Shown here in pieces: positions 20,278-40,630 of a DNA stretch of 64,000 nucleotides (position 1 is the stretch's first letter; every line of letters begins with the position of its first letter). The translations under genes were made by a program, and so were the position numbers. Location of the stretch: contig DATGDH010000037.1 in NCBI GenBank assembly GCA_035310985.1, positions 37,382 through 101,381 on the forward strand, in the 5' to 3' direction. The notes beneath the pieces were generated by a model, which saw only the letters and a program-made list of their open reading frames with translations, had not been told where the DNA came from and did not search any database. This stretch comes from Burkholderiales bacterium. GTDB lineage: Bacteria; Pseudomonadota; Gammaproteobacteria; Burkholderiales; SG8-39.

Positions 20278-23759
<3,482 letters not shown>

Positions 23760-23825: not shown

Positions 23826-24596
23826 TCAGCCCGAAGTGCGCTTGACGATCTCTCCCAGCGCGCCGAGCAGGTTGACCGGCACCGGAAACACGATGGTGTT
23901 GCTCTTGTCGCCGGCGATTTCCGTCAGGATCTGCAGGTAGCGCAATTGCATCGCCTCGGGCTGGGTGGCCAGCTTGGCGCCAGCTTGCAGCAGCTTTTCT
24001 GCGGCTTGCGCCTCGCCTTCGGAGTAGATGACCTTCGCGCGCCGCTCGCGCTCGGCCTCGGCCTGGCGCGCGATCGCGCGAATCATCGATTCATTCAGGT
24101 CGACGTGCTTGATCTCGACGTTCGCCACCTTGATCCCCCAAGCGTCGGTCTGCTGGTCGAGCACGGTCTGGATGTCGAGATTGAGCTTGTCTCGCTCGGC
24201 GAGCATCTCGTCCAGCTCGTGCTTGCCGAGCACCGCGCGCAGAGTGGTCTGCGCCAGCTGGCTGGTTGCGCCGAGGAAATCGGCCACCTGGATCACCGCC
24301 CTGGCCGGGTCGACGACGCGGAAGTAAACCACCGCGTTCACCTTGACCGAGACGTTGTCGCGCGAGATCACGTCCTGGCTCGGCACGTCGAGTACCATGG
24401 TGCGCAGGTCCATGCGGACCATCTGCTGGATCCCCGGGATGATGACGACGAGCCCGGGACCCTTGACCTTGTGAAAGCGCCCAAGCATGAAGACGACGCC
24501 GCGCTCGTACTCGCGCAGGATGCGCAGCGACGAGACCACCAGCACGATGACGATGATCAGCGCGCCAAAGCTGAAGCTGAAACCGAAGTTGAACAC
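23826..24596 (-). CDS. SPFH/band-7 (stomatin-like, QmcA/YbbK-type) membrane protein
   Basis: GTG start. N-terminal TM helix [13 protein letters not shown]. Motifs [38 protein letters not shown] and [11 protein letters not shown]. Confidence 0.9.
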
Positions 24597-24601
24597 GATG
24601 G

Positions 24602-25972
24602 TTACCCTCCGTTGCCGTTACCGGGCTCGGCGATGACGTCGAGCACCAGGCCTTCTATCGCCGTGACGCGCAGCCGCTGGCCCTTGCGCACCGGCGTGCC
24701 CGAGCGCACGCGCCAGTTCTCGCTGTGCACGCGCGCCCAGCCCTCCCCGCTGAAGTCCTCCAGCGCGACGCCGCCCGCGCCGATCAGCTCCTCGCGCCCG
24801 GTCACCACCGGGCGCCTGCGGCCCCTGACCAGCATGCCGACGACGAAGATGAGGAACGCCGCGCTCGCCGCGGCGATGCCGCCGATCAGCGCGTAGGGGA
24901 TCTCGAAGCCGGGCACATCGGTGTCGATGAGGATGATCGAGCCGATGACGAAGGAAATGAGTCCGCCCACGCCGAGCGAGCCGAAGGCGGGCACGAAGGC
25001 CTCGGCGACCATGAACGCGATGCCGAGCAGAATCAACGCCAGCCCGGCGTAGTTCACCGGCAGCAGCTGGAACGCGTACATCGCCAGCAGGATGCAGATC
25101 GCGCCGACCACGCCGGGCAGCACCAGGCCCGGGTTGGAGAACTCGTACAGCACGGCGTAGATGCCGAGCAGCACCAGGATGTAGGCAACGCTCGGGTTGG
25201 TGATCACCCCGAGCAGCCTGGTGCGCCAGCCGACCTCGTAGTTCTCGACTTTCGCGTCCGCCAGGTGCAGCGTGCGCTCGACGCCGCCCGCCGTCACCTT
25301 GCGCCCTTCGAGCTTGGCGAGCAGCGCCGGCACGTTGTCGGCGACGAAGTCGATCACCTTGAGCCGCGCCGCCTCCGCTGAGGGTAGGCTCACCGCCTCG
25401 CGCACCGCGCGCTCGGCCCACTCGGCGTTGCGCCCGCGCAGCTGCGCCAGGCCGCGGATGTAGGCCGAGGCGTCGTGCACCATCTTGTGCTCGAGCGTGC
25501 TGCCGCCCTCCTCGCCCTTGCCCTTTTTCGCGCCCTTCTCCGGCGCGGGAGTGGAAGGCGCGCCGATCGCGATCGGCGTCGCCGCGCCGAGGTTGGTCGC
25601 CGGCGCCATGGCCGCGAAGTGGCTCGCGTACAGGATGTACGTGCCGGCACTCGCGGCGCGCGCGCCCGAGGGCGCGACGTAGGCCGCCACCGGCACCGGA
25701 GAGGCGAGGATGTCCTTGATGATCGAGCGCATCGCGGTGTCCAGTCCGCCCGGGGTGTCCATCTCGAGCACCACGAGCTGCGCGCCGTCCCTGGCCGCGG
25801 CTTCCAGCCCGCGGTGCACGTAGTCCGCGGTCGCCGGCCCGATCGCGCCGTCGATGGTCAGCACCAGCACCGGCGCGGCACGCGCCTGCGCTGCGCCCAG
25901 CAGGAGCGCGGCCAGCACCAGCAGTCTGCGCAGCTCCAACGCCTTCTCCTTGCGCCCTCGTCCCGAGACCAT
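24602..25972 (-). CDS. NfeD-family membrane-bound ClpP-class serine protease
   Basis: Signal [16 protein letters not shown]. ClpP-like domain [15 protein letters not shown]...MDTPGGL...[14 protein letters not shown]. Central TM bundle and C-terminal OB-like domain. Lies 5 nt upstream of the SPFH gene. Confidence 0.85.
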
Positions 25973-26004: not shown

Positions 26005-29000
26005 GTGAAACCCGAGTCCCTCCCCGCCGAAGCCATCGTCGTACGCGGCGCCCGGCAGAACAACCTGAAGAACCTCTCGCTCGCGATCCCCACGGGGGAG
26101 CTGGTGGTGGTGACCGGGGTGTCGGGCTCGGGCAAGTCTTCGCTGGTCTTCGACACGCTCTACGCGGAGGGCCAGCGGCGCTACGTCGAGACCTTCAGCC
26201 CGTACGCGCGCCAGTTCCTCGACCGCATGGACAAGCCGCAGGTCGACGCGATCGAGGGCATTCCGCCGGCGATCGCCATCGACCAGACCAACCCGGTGCG
26301 CACCTCGCGCTCGACGGTCGGCACGATGACCGAGCTGAACGACCACCTCAAGCTCCTGTACGCGCGCGCCGCGACGCTCTTCTGCCGCGGCTGCGGCAAG
26401 CCGGTGACGCGCGACACGCCCGACTCGGTCTACCGCGTGCTCGAGGAACGCTGCGCGGCGCACGGCGACCCGCGCCTCGCGGTGACCTTTCCCGTGCCGG
26501 TGCCGAAGAGCTTCACGGAGAGCGAGATCGAGCAGCTGCTCGAGCGCCAGGGCTACACGCGCATCCACGCGCGCGCCAAGGGCCTGCTCGAGGTGACGCA
26601 GGACCGCTTCCGCCTCTCGGACGCCGGCCGCGCGCGCGCCATCGAGGCGCTCGAAGCCGCGCTGCGCGTCGGGCAGGGAAAGGTCAACGTCTATCTCGAG
26701 GACGGTACGGCGTGGCGCTTCTCGTCCGACCTGCACTGCCCGGACTGCGACATCCATTACTCCGAGCCGACGCCCGCGGCGTTCTCGTTCAACTCGCCGC
26801 TCGGCGCCTGCGAGACCTGCCGCGGCTTCGGGCGCGTGATCGGCGTCGATTTCGGTCTGGTGATCTCGGACGAAGCGAAGTCCCTGCGCGAGGGCGCGGT
26901 GCGCCCCTGGCAGACCGCGAGCTTCAAGGAATGCCAGGACGACCTGGTCAAGTACGCGAAGAAGCGCGGCATTCCGCTTGATACGCCCTTCCGGGAACTG
27001 AGCTCTTCCCAAAAGGAATGGATTCTCGAAGGAGAAAGCGACTGGGTCAGCTGGAAAAAGAGCTGGCCGGGCACCTGGTACGGCGTGCGGCGCTTCTTCA
27101 AGTGGCTCGAGACGAAGGCCTACAAGATGCACATCCGCGTGCTCTTGTCGAAGTACCGCGCCTACACCGAGTGCACGGCCTGCGGCGGCACGCGCCTCAA
27201 GCCGGACGCGACGCTGTGGCGCATCGGCCCGCACTCGATCCACGACCTGATGCTGCTGCCGATCGGGCGCGTGCGCGAGTTCATGGACGCATTGCGCCTG
27301 CCCGCGCCGGCGGACGAGGCGACCGAGCTGCTGATGGCGGAGATCCGCGCGCGGCTCAGGTTCCTCTGCGAGGTGGGCCTCGCCTACCTCACGCTCGACC
27401 GCCAGTCGCGCACGCTCTCGGGCGGCGAGGTGCAGCGGATCAACCTCACCACCGCGCTCGGCACCTCGCTCGTCAACACGCTGTTCGTGCTCGACGAGCC
27501 CTCGATCGGGCTGCACCCGCGCGACATGGGGCGCGTGATCGAGGTGATGAAGCGCCTGCGCGACGCCGGCAACTCGCTCGTGGTGGTCGAGCACGATCCG
27601 CAGATCATGTTCGCCGCCGACCGCATCCTCGACATGGGGCCCGGCCCGGGCGAGCGCGGCGGCGAGGTGGTGTTCTTCGGTGCGCCGCAGGAATTGAAGC
27701 AGCGGGGCACCCTGACGGCCGATTACCTCTCAGGGCGAAAACGCGCCGGCGAAAGTTTCGTTCAATCTGCCCCCCAGAAGGATTTCATTCGTGTCGAAGG
27801 GGCAAGCGAACACAATCTGAAAGACCTGGACATGTCGATCCCGCTGCAGCGCCTCGTCTGCGTGACAGGCGTGTCGGGATCGGGCAAGTCGACGCTGGTC
27901 GAGGACGTGCTCTGCCGCGCCCTGCTCAAGGCGAAGGGCAAGCCGACCGAGGCGCCCGGCGCGCACCGCGCGCTCTCCGGCGCCGAGAAGATCTCCGAGG
28001 CGGTGCTGGTCGACCAGTCGCCGATCGGCAAGACGACGCGCTCCAACCCGGCGAGCTACGTCGGCGCCTGGGACGCGATCAGGATGCTCTTCGCGCGCGC
28101 GCCGCTCGCGCAGGAGCGCAAGTACACGCCCGGCACCTTCAGCTTCAACGCCGGCAACGGCCGCTGCCCGACCTGCGGCGGCAACGGCTTCGAGCACGTC
28201 GAGATGCAGTTCCTGTCGGACGTGTACCTGCGCTGCCCGGACTGCGACGGCAAGCGGTTCCGCCCCGAGGTGCTCGAGGTCGCGCTGCGCGGCAGGAGCA
28301 TCTCCGACGTGCTCGAGATGACCGTGTCCGAGGCGCTCGCCTTCTTCGCCGGCGAGCGCGAGGTCGAGGCGCGCCTCGCGCCGCTCGCCGAGGTGGGGCT
28401 CGAGTACCTGCGCCTCGGCCAGCCGGTGCCGACGCTCTCGGGCGGCGAGGCGCAGCGCCTCAAGCTCGCCGGCCACCTGCAGCAGGGACCGGGCGCGAAC
28501 AAGCTGTTCCTGTTCGACGAGCCGACCACCGGGCTGCACTTCGACGACGTCGCGAAGCTCCTGCGCGCCCTGCGCCGCCTGCTCGCCGCCGGCCACTCGC
28601 TGGTAGTGATCGAGCACAACCTCGACGTGATGCGCGCCTCCGACTGGCTCATCGACCTCGGGCCCGAGGGCGGCGAGGCCGGCGGCGCGCTGGTGTGCGA
28701 AGGCACGCCCGAGCAAGTGATGCGCCACGCGACTTCGCACACCGCGCGAGCCCTGAGGGAATACGAAAAAGCGTTCACTGAACAGAAACCCCAAACCCGC
28801 GAACCCCAAGCCCGATACCTCGGGCATGCCATCCGCATCCACCACGCGCGCGAGCACAATCTGAAGAACATCGACGTCGAGATCCCGCGCAACCGCTTCA
28901 CCGTGGTGACCGGCGTGTCGGGCTCCGGAAAATCGACGCTCGCCTTCGACATCCTGTTCGCCGAAGGACAGCGCCGCTACCTCGAGTCGCTGAACGCCTA

Positions 29001-31425
29001 TGCGCGCCAGTTCGTGCAGACCGCCGCGCGCCCGGACGTGGACGCGATCTGGGGCATCCCGCCGACGGTGGCGATCGAGCAGCGCACCAGCCGCGGCGGC
29101 AGGAAAAGCACGGTCGGCACGCTGACCGAGATCCACCACTTCCTGAGGCTGCTCTTCGTCAAGCTCGGCACCCAGCACTGCCCGGACTGCCGCGTGCCGA
29201 TCGAGCCGCAGAGCGAGGACGCGATCGCCGCGCGCCTGCTGCGCGAGTACCGCGGCCAGCGCATCGGCCTGCTCGCGCCCCTGGTGACGAACCGCAAGGG
29301 CGTGTACACCGACCTCGCCAAGTGGGCGAAGGCGAAGGGCTACGCGAGCCTGCGCGTAGACGGTGCGTTCCTGCCGGTCGATCCCTTCCCGCGCATCGAC
29401 CGGTTCAAGGAGCACAACATCGAGCTGCCGGTGGCCGACCTGCGCGTCGCACCCGAGAACGAGCGCGCGCTGCGCGCCGCGCTCGCCACCGCACTGGAGC
29501 TCGGCAAGGGCACGGTGCAGGTGCTCTCGGACCTCGACGCGCTGGTGAAGGCCGCGCAGAAAGCGAAGGGCCTGGTCGAGATGGTGCTGCGCCAGGCGCG
29601 CTATTCGACCAAGCGCGCCTGCCCCTCCTGCGGGCGCAGCTTCGCCGAGCCCGATCCGCGCCTGTTCTCCTACAACTCGAAGCACGGCTGGTGCCCGGCC
29701 TGCTACGGCACGGGGCTCAAGCTCGCCGAGGTCGGCTGGACGGACGAGCGCGCGCGCACCGGCACGGAGGACCACGTGCTCGACTCGTGGATCGAGTGGC
29801 TCGAGGTCGACGAGCCCTGCCCGGCCTGCGCGGGCCGGCGGCTCAACCCCGAGGCGCTCGCGGTCACCTGGCGCGGAAAGTCGATCGCCGACTACGGCGC
29901 GCAGCCGGTCGCGGATCTCGCAACGCAATTCGCCGGCGTTGCCCTCGAAGGCCGCGAGCGGGAGATCGCGCGCGACCTCGTCGCCGAGCTGACGAGCCGC
30001 CTCGGCTTCCTCGGCGAGGTCGGCCTCGGGTATCTCTCGCTCGACCGCTCGGCGCCGACGCTCTCGGGGGGCGAAGCGCAGAGGATCCGGCTGGCCGCGC
30101 AGCTCGGCTCGAACCTGCGCGGCGTGTGCTATATCCTGGACGAGCCGACCATCGGGCTGCATGCGCGCGACAACCGCATCCTGCTCGACGTGCTCGAGAA
30201 GCTCGAGGCGAAGGGCAACACGCTGGTGGTGGTCGAGCACGACGAGGAGACGATCCGCCGGGCGCACCACGTGCTCGACCTCGGCCCGGGCGCGGGCAAG
30301 CTCGGCGGGCGGGTGATCGGCGAGGGCACCGCCGAGGCGCTGATGGCGCTGCCCGATTCGGTCACCGGACGGTTCCTCGCGCATCCGCTCAGGCATCCGC
30401 TGCAGCCGCGCCGTCCCGTCAGCGAGAGAGCGGCTTCCGTTCAAATCAAGAAAGCCTCTCTGCACAATCTGGCGCAAATCGACCTGCGCGTGCCGCTCGG
30501 GCGGCTGGTGTGCGTGACCGGCGTGTCGGGCTCGGGCAAGTCGACGCTGGCGCGCGACGTGCTCTTGAGGAGCCTGCAGGAAGGCGCGCCGGTCGGCTGC
30601 AGGGAGGTGAAGGGCGCGCTCGAGCGCGTGCTCGAGGTCGATCAGACGCCGATCGGCAAGACTCCGCGCTCCTGTCCCGCGACCTACGTCGGCTTCTGGG
30701 ATTCGGTGCGCAAGCTGTTCGCCGACACGAGCGAGGCGCGCATGCGCGGCTGGACGCCTAGCCGCTTCTCGTTCAACACCAAGGGCGGCCGCTGCGAGTC
30801 CTGCGAGGGCCAGGGGCTGAAGACGATCGAGATGTCCTTCCTGCCCGACGTCAAGGTGGCCTGCGAAGCCTGCGGCGGCGCGCGATTCAACCCCGAGACG
30901 CTCGCGCTGCGCTGGCGCGGCAAGACGATCGGCGAGGTGCTCGCCATGAGCGTCGACGAGGCGCTCGCGTTCTTCGCCGCGCACCCCTCGATCCACAAGG
31001 CGCTGGGGCTGCTGCAGGACGTCGGCCTGGGCTACCTCACGCTCGGCCAGCAGAGTCCGACGCTCTCGGGCGGCGAAGCGCAGCGGATCAAGCTGGTCAC
31101 CGAGCTCTCCAAGGTGCGCAGCGAGACGCGCACGCTGTACGTGCTCGACGAGCCGACCGTCGGGCTGCACATGGCGGACGTGGAGAAGCTGATCCGCGTG
31201 CTGCACCGGCTGGTCGACGCGGGCAACAGCGTGCTGGTGATCGAGCACAACCTGGACGTGATCGCCGAGGCCGACTGGATCGTCGACCTGGGCCCCGAGG
31301 GCGGCGCGGGCGGCGGGCGCATCGTGTTCCAGGGCGCGCCCGAGGACGCCGCGCAAGCCGACTCGCACACCGCGCGCGTGCTGTCGGCCTTCCTCGCCGA
31401 GCGCGGCGCGCATGCTCGACATTGA
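26005..31425 (+). CDS. tandem UvrA-UvrA fusion protein (1806 aa, four ABC ATPase modules, six Cys4 zinc modules)
   Basis: GTG start. Four intact GVSGSGKS Walker A motifs at 26116-26139, 27868-27891, 28912-28935 and 30520-30543. Four LSGGE(V/A)QR signatures. Second UvrA-like unit begins near 28800 after the linker [18 protein letters not shown]. Confidence 0.9.
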
Positions 31426-33801: not shown

Positions 33802-34263
33802 ATGATCACACTGACCGTAAACGGCAGGAAAAGACAAGTGAACGCCGAGCCCGACACGCCGCTGCTTTGGGTGCTGCGCGACACGCTCGGCATGACCGGC
33901 ACCAAGTTCGGCTGCGGCGCGCAGCTCTGCGGCGCCTGCACCGTGCATCTCGACGGCAAGCCGGTGCGCTCCTGCGGCACGCCGGTTTCGGCGGCCGCCG
34001 GCAAGCACATCACGACCATCGAGGCGATCGACAAGACTGAGGCCGGCCGCAAGATCCAGGCGGCCTGGGCCGAGCTCGACGTGCCGCAATGCGGCTACTG
34101 CCAGTCGGGCCAGATCATGAGCGCGACCGCGCTGCTCGCCGAGAAGCCGCATCCGACCGACGCCGACATCGACGCCGCGATGGAAGGCAACGTATGCCGT
34201 TGCGGCACCTATCCCCGCATCCGCGCGGCAATTCACAAAGCCGCCGGCACCAAGGGAGCCTGA
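33802..34263 (+). CDS. (2Fe-2S)-binding small subunit of an IorAB/aldehyde-oxidoreductase-type molybdoenzyme, copy 1
   Basis: ATG 33802 follows GGGAGGGG. The product is 153 aa, the same length as copy 2. Motifs [12 protein letters not shown] and [12 protein letters not shown]...CRCGTY. Confidence 0.85.
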
Positions 34264-34265
34264 CC

Positions 34266-36383
34266 ATGAACCGACTCAAGAATCCCTCGCGCCGCACGTT
34301 CCTCAAGTCCGGCGCCGCGGCCAGCGGTGCGCTGGTCATCGGCGTCGCTCTGCCGGACGCGATGGCCAAGATGTCTGTGACCACGTCGATGCCCAATGCG
34401 TGGATCCGCATCGGCAGCGATAACAGCGTCACCATCCTGTGCGCGCGCTCGGAGATGGGACAAGGCGTCGTAATGGCGATGCCGACGCTCGTCGCAGAAG
34501 AACTCGAGGTCGATCTGAACAAGATTAAGGTCGACTTCGCGCCGCCCGGAGAAGCCTACATCAACAGCATGCTCGGCGCGCAGCTCACCGGCGGCTCGAC
34601 CTCGGTGCGCGACGGCTGGGAGAAGCTGCGCATCGCGGGCGCGCAGGCGCGCTCGATGCTGATCCAGGCCGCAGCCGACAAGTGGCACGTGGACGCGTCC
34701 AAGTGCCGTGCGCACAACGGAGTAGTGAGCGGGCCCGGCGGCAAGAAAGCGAGCTACGGTCAGCTCGCGCAGGCGGCCTCCAAGCTCACGCCGCCGAAGG
34801 AGGTGAAGCTCAAGCCGCCTTCCGAGTTCCGCTACGTCGGCAAGCCGCTGAATCGCCTGGACACCGCTGCCAAGATCCGCGGTAAGGCTGAGTACGGCAT
34901 CGACGTGCGGCTCCCGGGCATGCTGTATGCCTCGCTCGCGCAGTGCCCGGTGCTCGGCGGCAAGGTGGTGAGCTTCGATGCTGAAGAGGCGAAATCGATG
35001 CCGGGGGTCAAGCACGTGGTCCAGATCCCCGACGGAATCGCGGTCGTGGCGGACAGCTGGTGGCGCGCGAAGAAGGCGCGCGACACGATCAAGATCCAGT
35101 GGGACGAGGGCGCGAACAAGACGCTCAGCACCGAGTCGGCGTTCGCGGGGCTCGCGCAGGCGATGGCCCAGCCCGCGGCGCAGATCCGCAAGCAGGGCGA
35201 CGTCGACGCGGCGATGAAGACGGCCGCCAAGACGCTCGAGGCGACTTACGAGATGCCGTTCCTGTCGCACTCGCCGATGGAGCCGATGAACTTCACTGCG
35301 GACGTGCGCAAGGACTCGGCAACGCTGATCGGCTCGATCCAGTTCCAGCAGGCGGCGCTCGGCACGGCGGCCGCGATTACCGGCCTCAAGCCCGAGCAGA
35401 TCACGGTCCGCACCACGTTTCTCGGCGGTGGCTTCGGCAGGCGCATCGATTATGACTACGTCGCCCAGGCGGTGCTGATCTCGAAGGCGATCGGCGCTCC
35501 CGTCAAGCTGGTGTGGACGCGCGAAGACGACATGACGCACGACTTCTACCGCCCGGCCAGCCTGCACAAGATGGCGGGCGCGCTGGACGCCGAGGGCAGG
35601 CCGGTCGCGCTCAGCCTCAAAATGAGCTCGCCGTCCGTGACCGCGCGGCTCATTCCGCCGCTGGTGAAGGACGGCGTCGATCCGCTGATGACCGAGGCGA
35701 TCCTCGTGCCCTACGACGTCGCCAACCAGTCGGTCGGCACCGTGATCCACGACACCGGGCTGCGCGTCGGCTACCTGCGTTCCGTGTCGCACGCGCTCAA
35801 CATCTTCGCCAACGAGTCCTTCATCGACGAGATGGCGCATGCCGCGGGCAAGGATCCCTACGAGTACAGGCGCGCCCTGCTCGAGAAGCAGCCGCGGCAC
35901 AAGCGCGTGCTCGAGGCGGTCGCCCGCGAGGCGGGCTGGGGCAAGCCCCTGCCCGCGGGCCGCGCGCGCGGCATCGCGCTGATGGAGGGCTACGACACCT
36001 ACATGGCGCAGGTGGCCGAGGTGTCGGTCGAGGACGGCAAGATCAAGCTGCACCGGGTGGTGGTGGCGGTCGATGCGGGCCCGATGGTCAACCCCAACAT
36101 CGTGCGCCAGCAGATCGAGGGCAACATCGTGTTCGGGCTCACCGCGCTGAAGTACGGCAACATCACGCTGAAGGACGGCAGGGTGGAGCAGACCAACTTC
36201 GACAAGTACCTCATGGTGCGCATGCCGGAGTGCCCGGTGGTCGAGACCCACCTCGTGCCGAGCGGCGACAAGCCGGGCGGTATCGGCGAGCCGGCGACCG
36301 CGCTGCTCGGGCCGACGGTGGCGAACGCCGTGTTCGCGCTGACCGGAAAGCGGCTGCGCAAGATGCCGTTGAGCATTGCTTAG
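34266..36383 (+). CDS. molybdopterin-binding large subunit (IorB / xanthine dehydrogenase family), copy 1, Tat signal
   Basis: ATG 34266 lies 2 nt after the small-subunit stop. Tat motif [19 protein letters not shown]. Motifs [33 protein letters not shown] and GGIGEPAT. Confidence 0.85.
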
Positions 36384-38491: not shown

Positions 38492-40630
38492 ATGGGCACG
38501 GCATTCAAGGCCTCGCGCCGCAGCTTCCTCAAGGGCTCCGCCGCCGCGAGCGGCGGCCTGGTCATCGGCTTCGTGCTGCCCGCTGGCGGGCGCCTCGCCG
38601 AGGCCGCCGCGCCTTTCGCGCCGAACGCATACCTGCGCATCGCCGCCAACGGGCGCGTGACGGTGGTGTGCGGCCTGTCGGAGATGGGCCAGGGCGTGCT
38701 GACCGCGATCCCGATGCTGGTCGCCGAGGAGCTGGACGCCGACTGGGCGGAAGTCGGCGTCGAGCAGGCGCCGGTCGACAAGGCGTTCAACAATCCGGTA
38801 TTCGGCATGCAGGCGACCGGCGGCTCGACCTCGGTGCGCGGGCACTGGGAGCCGATGCGGAAGGCGGGGGCCGCCGCGCGCGAGATGCTCGTCGCCGCGG
38901 CCGCGCAAACGTGGAAGGCGAGCCCGGGAGACTGTCGCGCAGCGAAGGGCTTCGTGATCCACAGGAGCGGCAAGAAGCTCTCCTACGCGCGCCTTGCCGC
39001 GCGAGCGTCGAGGCTGCCGGTGCCGGCAAACCCGAAGCTGAAGGACCCGAAGGACTTCACGATCCTCGGCCAGGGCCTGCACCGGCTCGACACGCCGCCG
39101 AAGGTGAACGGCAGGGCGAAGTTCGGGCTCGACGTGCGCCTGCCCGGCATGCTGATCGCAGTGATGGCGCGCCCGCCGGTGCCCGGCGGCAAGGCGCTGT
39201 CGGTGGACGATTCCAAGGCAAAGGCGATCAAGGGCGTGCGCCAGGTGATCCAGATCCCGCAGGGCGTGGCGGTGCTCGCCGACGGCTACTGGGCCGCCAA
39301 GCAGGGACGCGACGCGCTCGAGATCAAATGGGACGACGGCCCGAACGCAGGCCTCGGCTCGAGCGATATCTCGAAGATGCTCGCCGAGGCGACCACCGTT
39401 CCAGCCAAGGTCGGCCGCAACGACGGCGACGTCGCCACGGCGGGCGGCACGAAGGCGATCGAGTCGCACTACGAGGCGCCGTACCTCGCGCACGCCTGCA
39501 TGGAGCCGATGAACTGCACCGCCTGGGTGAAGCAGGACGAGGTCGAGATCTGGGCCGGTACGCAATCGCAGGGCCCGAGCCAGGGAATCGTGTCGCAGGT
39601 GAGCGGCGTCGCGCCCGGCAAGGTGAAGATCCACACGATGTACCTCGGCGGCGGCTTCGGCCGGCGCTTCGCGCCCGATTTCGCGGTCGACGCGACGCTG
39701 CTGTCCAAGATGTCGGGCAAGCCGGTGAAGCTCGTCTACGCGCGCGAGGACGACATGCGCGCCTACTTCTACCGTCCGGTGTCCGCCACGCGCTTCACTG
39801 GCGCGCTCGACGCGTCGGGCCGGCCGGTGGCGTTCAGCGCGCGCGTCGCCTCGCCCTCGATCATGGAAGGCTCGGGCTTCATGAAGCTGCCGCCGAACGG
39901 CGTCGATCAGTTCGCGGTGGAGGGCGTGCAGGACCTGCCCTACGACATCCCGAACGTGCGCGTCGAGTACTCGCGCGTCGAGCCGGGCGTGCAGGTGTGG
40001 TTCTGGCGCTCGGTGGGGCACTCGCAGAACATCTTCTTCAGCGAGAGCTTCGTCGACGAGCTGGCGCACGAAGCGGGCAAGGATCCGTTCGAGTTCCGGC
40101 GCGACCTGCTCGGCAAGCAGCCGCGCTACAAGGGCGCGCTCGAGCTCGCCGCGGACAAGGCGGGCTGGGGCGCCCCGCTGCCGCCGGGCGTGTTCCGCGG
40201 TATCGCGGTGGCGCAGTCCTTCGGCAGCTACGTCGCCGAGGTGGCGGAGGTATCGGTGGGCGACGACGGCGCGGTCAAGGTGCACCGCATCGTCGCCGCG
40301 GTCGACTGCGGCCGGACCGTCAACCCCGAGATCATCCGGCGCCAGATCGAGAGCGCGATCGTATACGGGTTGTCGGCCGCGCTATACGGGAAGATCACCC
40401 TGAAGGACGGCAAGGTCGAGCAAGGCAATTTCGACTCCTATCCGGTGCTGCGCATGAACGAGATGCCCAAGGTCGAGGTGTACATCGTGCCGAGCACGGA
40501 GAACCCGGGCGGCATCGGCGAGCCCGGGCTGCCGGCAGCCGCGCCCGCGGTGACCAACGCGATCTTCGCCGCGACCGGCAAGCGCATCCGCCGGCTGCCG
40601 ATCGACCGCGACCTGCTGAAGAAGGCCTGA
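38492..40630 (+). CDS. molybdopterin-binding large subunit (IorB / xanthine dehydrogenase family), copy 2, Tat signal
   Basis: 712 aa. Tat motif [19 protein letters not shown]. Motifs [33 protein letters not shown] and GGIGEPGL. Confidence 0.85.

Follow-up and report, generated by a model that had tools for sequence, protein, structure and literature searches.

The window analysed here, a 64,000 nt stretch of contig DATGDH010000037.1 from a Burkholderiales bacterium (assembly GCA_035310985.1), contains a gene, designated here tandem uvrA, whose product of 1806 amino acids (aa) is made of two UvrA units joined by a linker. The two units, which we call half 1 and half 2, have lost different parts: the insertion domain is retained in half 1 and missing from half 2, and the UvrB-binding domain has degenerated in both, in a complementary manner. 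As far as we checked, this complementary degeneration is undescribed in the literature. We put the chances at about even that the tandem UvrA serves excision repair as an auxiliary sensor, having a single insertion domain and a single UvrB-loading site still preserved. The gene, its units and the domains compared are the following.

26005-31425, + strand: tandem uvrA gene, 1806 aa, GTG start, stop codon at 31423-31425
26005-28755, + strand: half 1, a complete UvrA unit (aa 1-917) with a diverged UvrB-binding domain and an insertion domain; phmmer match to 2r6f, 793 bits
26383-26748, + strand: half-1 zinc module 1 and UvrB-binding domain (aa 127-248); hidden Markov model (HMM) score of 25 bits
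26809-27183, + strand: half-1 zinc module 2 and insertion domain, a Trp-rich variant (aa 269-393); Pfam PF17755, HMM score of 74 bits
28756-28827, + strand: inter-unit linker of 24 residues (aa 918-941); GC content of 0.54, versus 0.70 for the open reading frame (ORF)
28828-31422, + strand: half 2, a UvrA unit without insertion domain (aa 942-1806); phmmer match split in two, leaving out the insertion domain of 9gxk
29179-29631, + strand: half-2 zinc module 1 and UvrB-binding domain (aa 1059-1209); Pfam PF17760, 106 bits, HMM score of 82 bits
29692-29829, + strand: half-2 zinc module 2, with 38 residues between the Cys pairs in the place of the insertion domain; low-confidence loop in the AlphaFold2 (AF2) model

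Insertion and UvrB-binding domains of the two halves

Pfam UvrA_DNA-bind was found in half 1 only (aa 282-346) and, in a structure alignment, the chain residues 305-404 that form the insertion domain of C. thermocellum UvrA (9gxk) had no counterpart in half 2. Likewise, with domain HMM profiles made from single UvrAs, the insertion-domain profile gave around 66 bits for half 1 and around -2 bits for half 2. We then scored the insertion domain in a family sample of 31 tandem proteins, comprising the one from the window and 30 from related loci, and the domain was lost from half 2 in all 31; the spacing between the Cys pairs of zinc module 2 was 106-137 aa in the 30 half 1s that could be scored, as compared to 104-130 aa in canonical single UvrAs, and 13-45 aa in half 2, with one case of 77 aa. 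A previous reading of this DNA, made from the sequence only, had placed the insertion domain in half 1 and considered it deleted in half 2, and this holds in 31/31 proteins by spacing and HMM, and in the protein from the window by Pfam and structure alignment as well; the alignments show that the two halves differ in their domain complement. The insertion domain of half 1 is itself peculiar, with a Glu in the conserved aromatic column, a shorter beta-hairpin and a Trp-rich motif that is strongly conserved in the family.

A UvrB-binding domain is present in both halves, each with a different subset of the canonical residues, and is folded in both according to AF2 models that were run on each half separately. 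The predicted local distance difference test (pLDDT) values of the domain, in 10-residue blocks, were 78-91 in half 1 (mostly at least 85) and 77-93 in half 2 (mostly at least 87). The domain of half 2 conserves the canonical core motifs (LAP, RKG, RxDG and H198), and Pfam UvrA_inter was found only there (aa 1069-1174), whereas the domain of half 1 has lost the core motifs as well as about 20 aa of the beta-hairpin; residues Q130, L151, A152, K159, G160, R178, D180, G181, L192, H198 and I200 are kept by half 2 only. Conversely, residues R186, D200, R201, R211 and E217 from half 1 correspond to E. coli R176, D205, R206, R216 and E222, and R216 and E222 are part of the interaction surface with UvrB (PMC3025350), while the equivalents of these last two in half 2 are Ala and Ala. 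Conservation scored over 28 half 1s and 29 half 2s shows the same distribution: R216 is kept in 28/28 half 1s (100%) and in 2/29 half 2s (7%), E222 in 27/28 (96%) and 5/29 (17%), and R176, D205 and R206 in 100% of the half 1s and 0-7% of the half 2s. The sequence-only reading had assigned the UvrB-docking surface to half 2, and this assignment is not supported, with these five positions kept at 96-100% in half 1 and 0-17% in half 2. Additionally, seven canonical positions of signature II are kept by half 2 only and two by half 1 only. The DNA-binding residues R712, R722, R724 and R730 described in PMC3025350 are not Arg in the E. coli numbering used, and their comparison was dropped.

These patterns bear on which half could dock UvrB. 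Half 2 might hold the sole working UvrB-docking domain, the domain of half 1 being a dead remnant, with UvrB sitting on the half that has no insertion domain. The exclusive match of half 2 to Pfam UvrA_inter and its higher score with the HMM of the canonical domain (82 bits, versus 25 for half 1) agree with this possibility, and in the UvrA2-UvrB1 complex of M. tuberculosis the first UvrB is on the protomer with a displaced insertion domain, which a half devoid of this domain would mimic. Nevertheless, R216/E222 and R176/D205/R206 are nearly invariant in half 1 and, because they are variable in half 2, the UvrB-contact surface of the latter looks unconstrained, so we consider a sole docking domain in half 2 unlikely. 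It is equally improbable, in our opinion, that both domains bind UvrB in an A2B2-like arrangement in which the single insertion domain is the only functional asymmetry. Both UvrB-binding domains are indeed present and confidently folded in the AF2 models, and all four ATPase sites are intact; however, each domain has lost different residues, conserved in at least 77% of canonical UvrAs (most of them in at least 90%), and these losses are fixed across the family. An unchanged UvrB function in both domains would be surprising with such fixed, complementary losses.

The contacts of the dimer interface of C. thermocellum UvrA (PMC12796330) offer a view of how the two halves might associate. At the core of the interface, R54, Y55, Y62, Q65, F66, G80, P83 and L507 (C. 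thermocellum numbering) are kept in both halves, and each half has its own fixed changes in peripheral positions of the interface, which are S58 to T and V510 to T in half 1, and L67 to V, A84 to T, I85 to V and M508 to R or Q in half 2. The inter-protomer pair S58-I85 is then T/V from half 1 to half 2, with both residues changed, and S/I from half 2 to half 1, with both canonical, an arrangement to be expected when half 1 is paired with half 2. These asymmetric substitutions, as read from the alignments, fit a pairing of half 1 with half 2.

Integrity, spread and descent of the tandem gene

The ORF at 26005-31425 (+ strand) is unbroken and codes for the two UvrA units in one polypeptide, with a GC content at third codon positions (GC3) of 0.93, the same as that of the adjacent genes. 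The whole protein scored 2003 bits with TIGR00630 (cut-off of 729.8) and 2039 bits with NF001503 (cut-off of 1147); halves 1 and 2, singly, scored 977 and 1033 bits with the first model, both over the cut-off, and 988 and 1049 bits with the second, both under it. Identity is 35-47% between the two halves and 41-43% between each half, over its full length, and E. coli UvrA. Half 1 matched B. stearothermophilus UvrA (2r6f) from end to end in phmmer comparisons, and its AF2 model (pLDDT of 78) had 2r6f and 3uwx as top Foldseek matches, with template modelling scores of 0.77-0.79; the model of half 2 had a pLDDT of 77.

Each unit has the two ABC ATPase modules of class I UvrAs, with Walker A, signature, Walker B and H-loop. 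The Walker A motif GVSGSGKS occurs at aa 38, 622, 970 and 1506 (nt 26116, 27868, 28912 and 30520), along with four LSGGE signatures, four H-loops and four Walker B motifs, three of the latter matched by pattern and the fourth read by eye in the translation. Twelve CxxC motifs form six Cys4 zinc modules, three per unit, and are kept in nearly all the half 1s and half 2s of the family; the spacings between Cys pairs, from first Cys to first Cys, are 118 and 121 aa in half 1, and 147 and 42 aa in half 2. Much of this had been anticipated by the sequence-only reading: the presence of two UvrA units in one gene is borne out by the ORF, the TIGR00630 score of each half and the homologues; the four GVSGSGKS sites were found, in translation and nucleotides, at exactly the positions given; and the count of signatures and Cys4 modules, the four spacings, obtained then by hand, and the low-GC linker at the junction (0.54 versus 0.70) were all reproduced. 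The third zinc module of each unit is located as follows.

28165-28245, + strand: half-1 C-terminal zinc finger (aa 721-747), from its CxxC motifs
30793-30873, + strand: half-2 C-terminal zinc finger (aa 1597-1623), from its CxxC motifs

Two local deviations were seen in half 1. In the homolog from Ralstonia solanacearum CP015851.1, zinc module 1 retains only one of its four cysteines (D, T, C and S in place of C, C, C and C), all of which are kept in the other members of the family examined except for one frameshifted locus (L038). Additionally, the segment at aa 478-492 (around nt 27436-27480), after the first signature, is altered with respect to the canonical QRIRLATQIGS, with changes that are fixed across the family and adjoin the position of the E. 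coli damage-recognition mutant G502D.

A long ORF of this kind could result from a sequencing or assembly artefact, with neighbouring genes fused by a frameshift, or be a pseudogene, and some related loci from long-read metagenomes do show frame breaks, including one with the two halves in different frames. Nevertheless, the ORF is unbroken and has a uniform GC3, an identical protein is deposited in NCBI (UvrA, from a Burkholderiales metagenome-assembled genome, MAG), we retrieved more than 120 homologues of 1736-1925 aa with 73-98% identity and 95-100% query coverage, and the gene is intact in complete genomes of cultured Ralstonia and Mycetohabitans. An artefact is thus ruled out and has, in our estimation, a negligible probability; a frameshift between two separate genes, which the sequence-only reading had named among the findings that would undo it, was discarded by the homologues and the complete genomes. 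The locus with halves in different frames (L054:7721-13034) is from a deltaproteobacterial long-read MAG and has its break in the linker; this is either an indel from sequencing or a case of two genes that are truly not fused.

Using a query spanning the junction, we found full-length tandem matches in several phyla, among them Beta- and Gammaproteobacteria, with Marinimicrobium alkaliphilum and Gilvimarinus as cultured examples, Spirochaetota, Verrucomicrobiota, Desulfobacterota and Poribacteria. The junction is also present in 158 records of a plasmid collection, from Ralstonia (including GMI1000), Burkholderia, Mycetohabitans, Caballeronia and Cupriavidus; in Mycetohabitans rhizoxinica, the gene is annotated as a 'uvrA' of 1975 aa. 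The architecture was surveyed in 151 sequences, comprising our query and the 150 nearest 50%-identity cluster representatives, and 145 of them have two UvrA units. A full first unit followed by a second one without insertion domain occurs in 45 sequences, including the query, whereas 41 have both accessory domains in both units and 22, class II-like tandems of around 1600 aa, have no UvrB-binding domain in either. In a few tandem UvrAs it is the first unit that lacks the insertion domain. Among homologues, both the length and the sequence of the linker region vary greatly, and some have as many as about 50 additional residues.

In a tree built by neighbour joining from 31 tandem proteins, split into halves, and 31 single UvrAs, 28 half 1s fell in one clade and 29 half 2s in another, with similar internal branching, and half 2 was closer than half 1 to single UvrAs. 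The matching clades point to one old fusion that was inherited as a unit and, as far as can be read from sequence comparisons, the family arose by the old fusion of two class I-type UvrA units. That a class II paralogue was fused with a class I one was ruled out, since a UvrB-binding domain occurs in each half and both obtained their highest scores with class I structures. The exceptions in the tree are one frameshifted half 1, which is an outlier, and two proteins from Poribacteria (L037 and L040) that lack the insertion domain in unit 2 and have both halves outside of the main clades; their placement may reflect an independent fusion or a long-branch effect.

The tandem architecture itself is not new; it is common, is annotated as UvrA and appears in at least one record, from R. 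solanacearum CP015851.1 (ANH35961.1), as 'Excinuclease ABC subunit A, dimeric form'. This protein is 61% identical to ours over 99% of the length, belongs to the same half-1 and half-2 clades and shows the same domain asymmetry. Orthologues occur in Cupriavidus and in cultured Ralstonia, Burkholderia, Mycetohabitans, Caballeronia and Marinimicrobium, and those from all of these genera but the last are on megaplasmids or secondary replicons, next to other genes. The novelty suggested by the sequence-only reading stands only in part, because the architecture is widespread and annotated, but neither a description nor a functional study of a tandem UvrA was found in the searchable full-text literature, including a 2021 review on bacterial excision repair; that reading had likewise known of no functional characterisation. 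NCBIfam NF001885 (PRK00635), a double-length 'excinuclease ABC subunit A' model of 1809 positions, also comprises two units. Our protein does not belong to it, with 1184 bits versus a cut-off of 3054, and the NF001885 family, which we take to be the Chlamydia type, is probably a separate tandem lineage.

Proposed function and its alternatives

Each half shares with canonical class I UvrAs (E. coli; 2r6f, 3pih, 3zqj, 9gxk) two ABC ATPase modules, three zinc modules and a UvrB-binding domain. The canonical protein, however, has one unit of about 940 aa and forms a homodimer, whereas the tandem UvrA has, in its 1806 aa, two non-identical units joined by a variable linker, of which half 2 lacks the insertion domain, and each of its UvrB-binding domains holds only a part of the conserved set. 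Class II UvrAs (D. radiodurans UvrA2, 2vf7; Ecm16, 7sh1; DrrC) are also UvrA paralogues with a divergent insertion domain, but they are single units of about 800 aa without the UvrB-binding domain that the tandem UvrA has in both halves. Halves 1 and 2 gave 585 and 597 bits against 2vf7, and 793 and 852 bits against class I structures.

An alternative is a role independent of UvrB, as with the class II proteins UvrA2, DrrC and Ecm16, for instance in displacing DNA-bound drugs or in protecting DNA. In Ralstonia, Burkholderia and Mycetohabitans, the gene occurs as a second copy carried by secondary replicons, class II paralogues such as Ecm16 act apart from excision repair, and the insertion domain is diverged and, at the same time, strongly conserved within the tandem family. 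Such a role is hard to reconcile with the possession of two UvrB-binding domains, absent from class II, with the strong constraint on the UvrB-contact residues of half 1 and with the higher scores of both halves against class I structures; moreover, the loci share no linked gene for biosynthesis or resistance. We therefore assign it a low probability.

The role that we propose, that of an auxiliary excision-repair sensor, would involve the pairing of halves 1 and 2 through the canonical UvrA interface to form a pseudo-dimer with four active nucleotide sites. Since half 1 keeps the contact residues and half 2 keeps more of signature II, we propose that one of the two composite docking sites for UvrB (or Mfd) would be preserved, the other being degenerate. 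The preserved site would be formed by R186, D200, R201, R211 and E217 from half 1 together with the more canonical signature II from half 2, so that one UvrB would be recruited beside the sole insertion domain, and the protein would act alongside canonical UvrA as an auxiliary damage sensor. The tandem UvrA probably coexists with a canonical uvrA, which is shown indirectly and for Ralstonia orthologues, not for the MAG studied here. Prokka named the orthologue in Ralstonia AP024106.1 'uvrA_2', pointing to a second uvrA in that genome, and C. metallidurans carries a further uvrA paralogue, a single or tandem uvrA2, on its second replicon (PMC2864759). A tandem UvrA with a single UvrB would resemble, in a fixed form, the asymmetric states that cryo-electron microscopy (cryo-EM) has revealed for the M. 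tuberculosis protein, although in the M. tuberculosis model the first UvrB is on the protomer with the released insertion domain, whereas here we propose that UvrB is beside the insertion domain. That the protein is a hard-wired asymmetric UvrA, having exactly one composite UvrB site and one lesion-recognising insertion domain and, hence, always one UvrB in a fixed geometry, is a tentative idea that we regard as rather doubtful.

Several observations weigh against the sensor that we propose and the pairing and descent on which it is built. The asymmetry in signature II is modest and the domain boundaries are approximate, half 2 may bind UvrB via an altered surface, and the S58-I85 pattern would fit a domain-swapped, intermolecular pairing equally well. 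An aromatic residue that is important in the M. tuberculosis study is absent from the insertion domain of half 1 and, therefore, its role in lesion recognition may differ. The cryo-EM study of the M. tuberculosis protein also proposes that the dimer disassembles at lesion hand-off, and the covalent link makes a full dissociation impossible for the tandem UvrA. Finally, the tree is a rough neighbour-joining one, and there is no canonical uvrA or uvrB within the 64-kb window.

Genomic surroundings and meaning of the asymmetry

The genes immediately flanking tandem uvrA are the following.

23826-25972, - strand: NfeD and SPFH/Band-7 gene pair, divergent from uvrA, with 32 bp between start codons
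31412-32434, + strand: rtcA (RNA 3'-phosphate cyclase), Pfam RTC 259 bits, overlapping the 3' end of uvrA by 14 nt

The start of rtcA 14 nt before the end of the uvrA stop codon suggests translational coupling. Gene rtcA is probably co-transcribed with tandem uvrA here and not a conserved partner: it was not found next to tandem uvrA at any of 80 related loci, and neither rtcB nor rtcR was seen adjoining this stand-alone rtcA. Upstream, the short distance of 32 bp to the NfeD start implies that the uvrA promoter must lie within the NfeD coding region; neither a LexA-box-like CTGT-N8-ACAG nor a sigma-70 consensus was found near the uvrA start. The NfeD/SPFH pair is shared with one other locus only (L003), and clustering of the flanking ORFs from 30 loci revealed no conserved operon partner beyond close relatives. 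Elsewhere in the window, at 20669-23759 (- strand), the genes for a PhaC-type polyhydroxyalkanoate synthase and for a protein of the ATP synthase alpha/beta family (456 aa) overlap by 17 nt, an unusual pairing, and two large molybdopterin-binding subunits of the aldehyde oxidase/xanthine dehydrogenase type are encoded at 34089-36383 and 38492-40630 (+ strand), with an alpha/beta hydrolase between them.

The homodimer of canonical UvrA is symmetric and must turn asymmetric on damaged DNA. Cryo-EM has distinguished a 'recognition' and a 'support' insertion domain, as well as a UvrA2-UvrB1 intermediate (PMC11985968), and there is ongoing debate on the stoichiometry of the damage sensor (PMC7835731). 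The consistent loss of different parts by the two halves of the tandem UvrA fixes an asymmetry in the sequence and makes of this protein a natural, ready-made heterodimer, with one insertion domain and the UvrB-contact residues on one half; each site is therefore separately mutable, which is impossible in a homodimer. The existence of orthologues in the tractable Ralstonia, Burkholderia and Cupriavidus makes the predictions directly testable. If the family is indeed hard-wired for a single UvrB, the tandem UvrA would provide a natural single-chain system for the question of UvrA2B1 versus UvrA2B2 and for the choice of the damaged strand.

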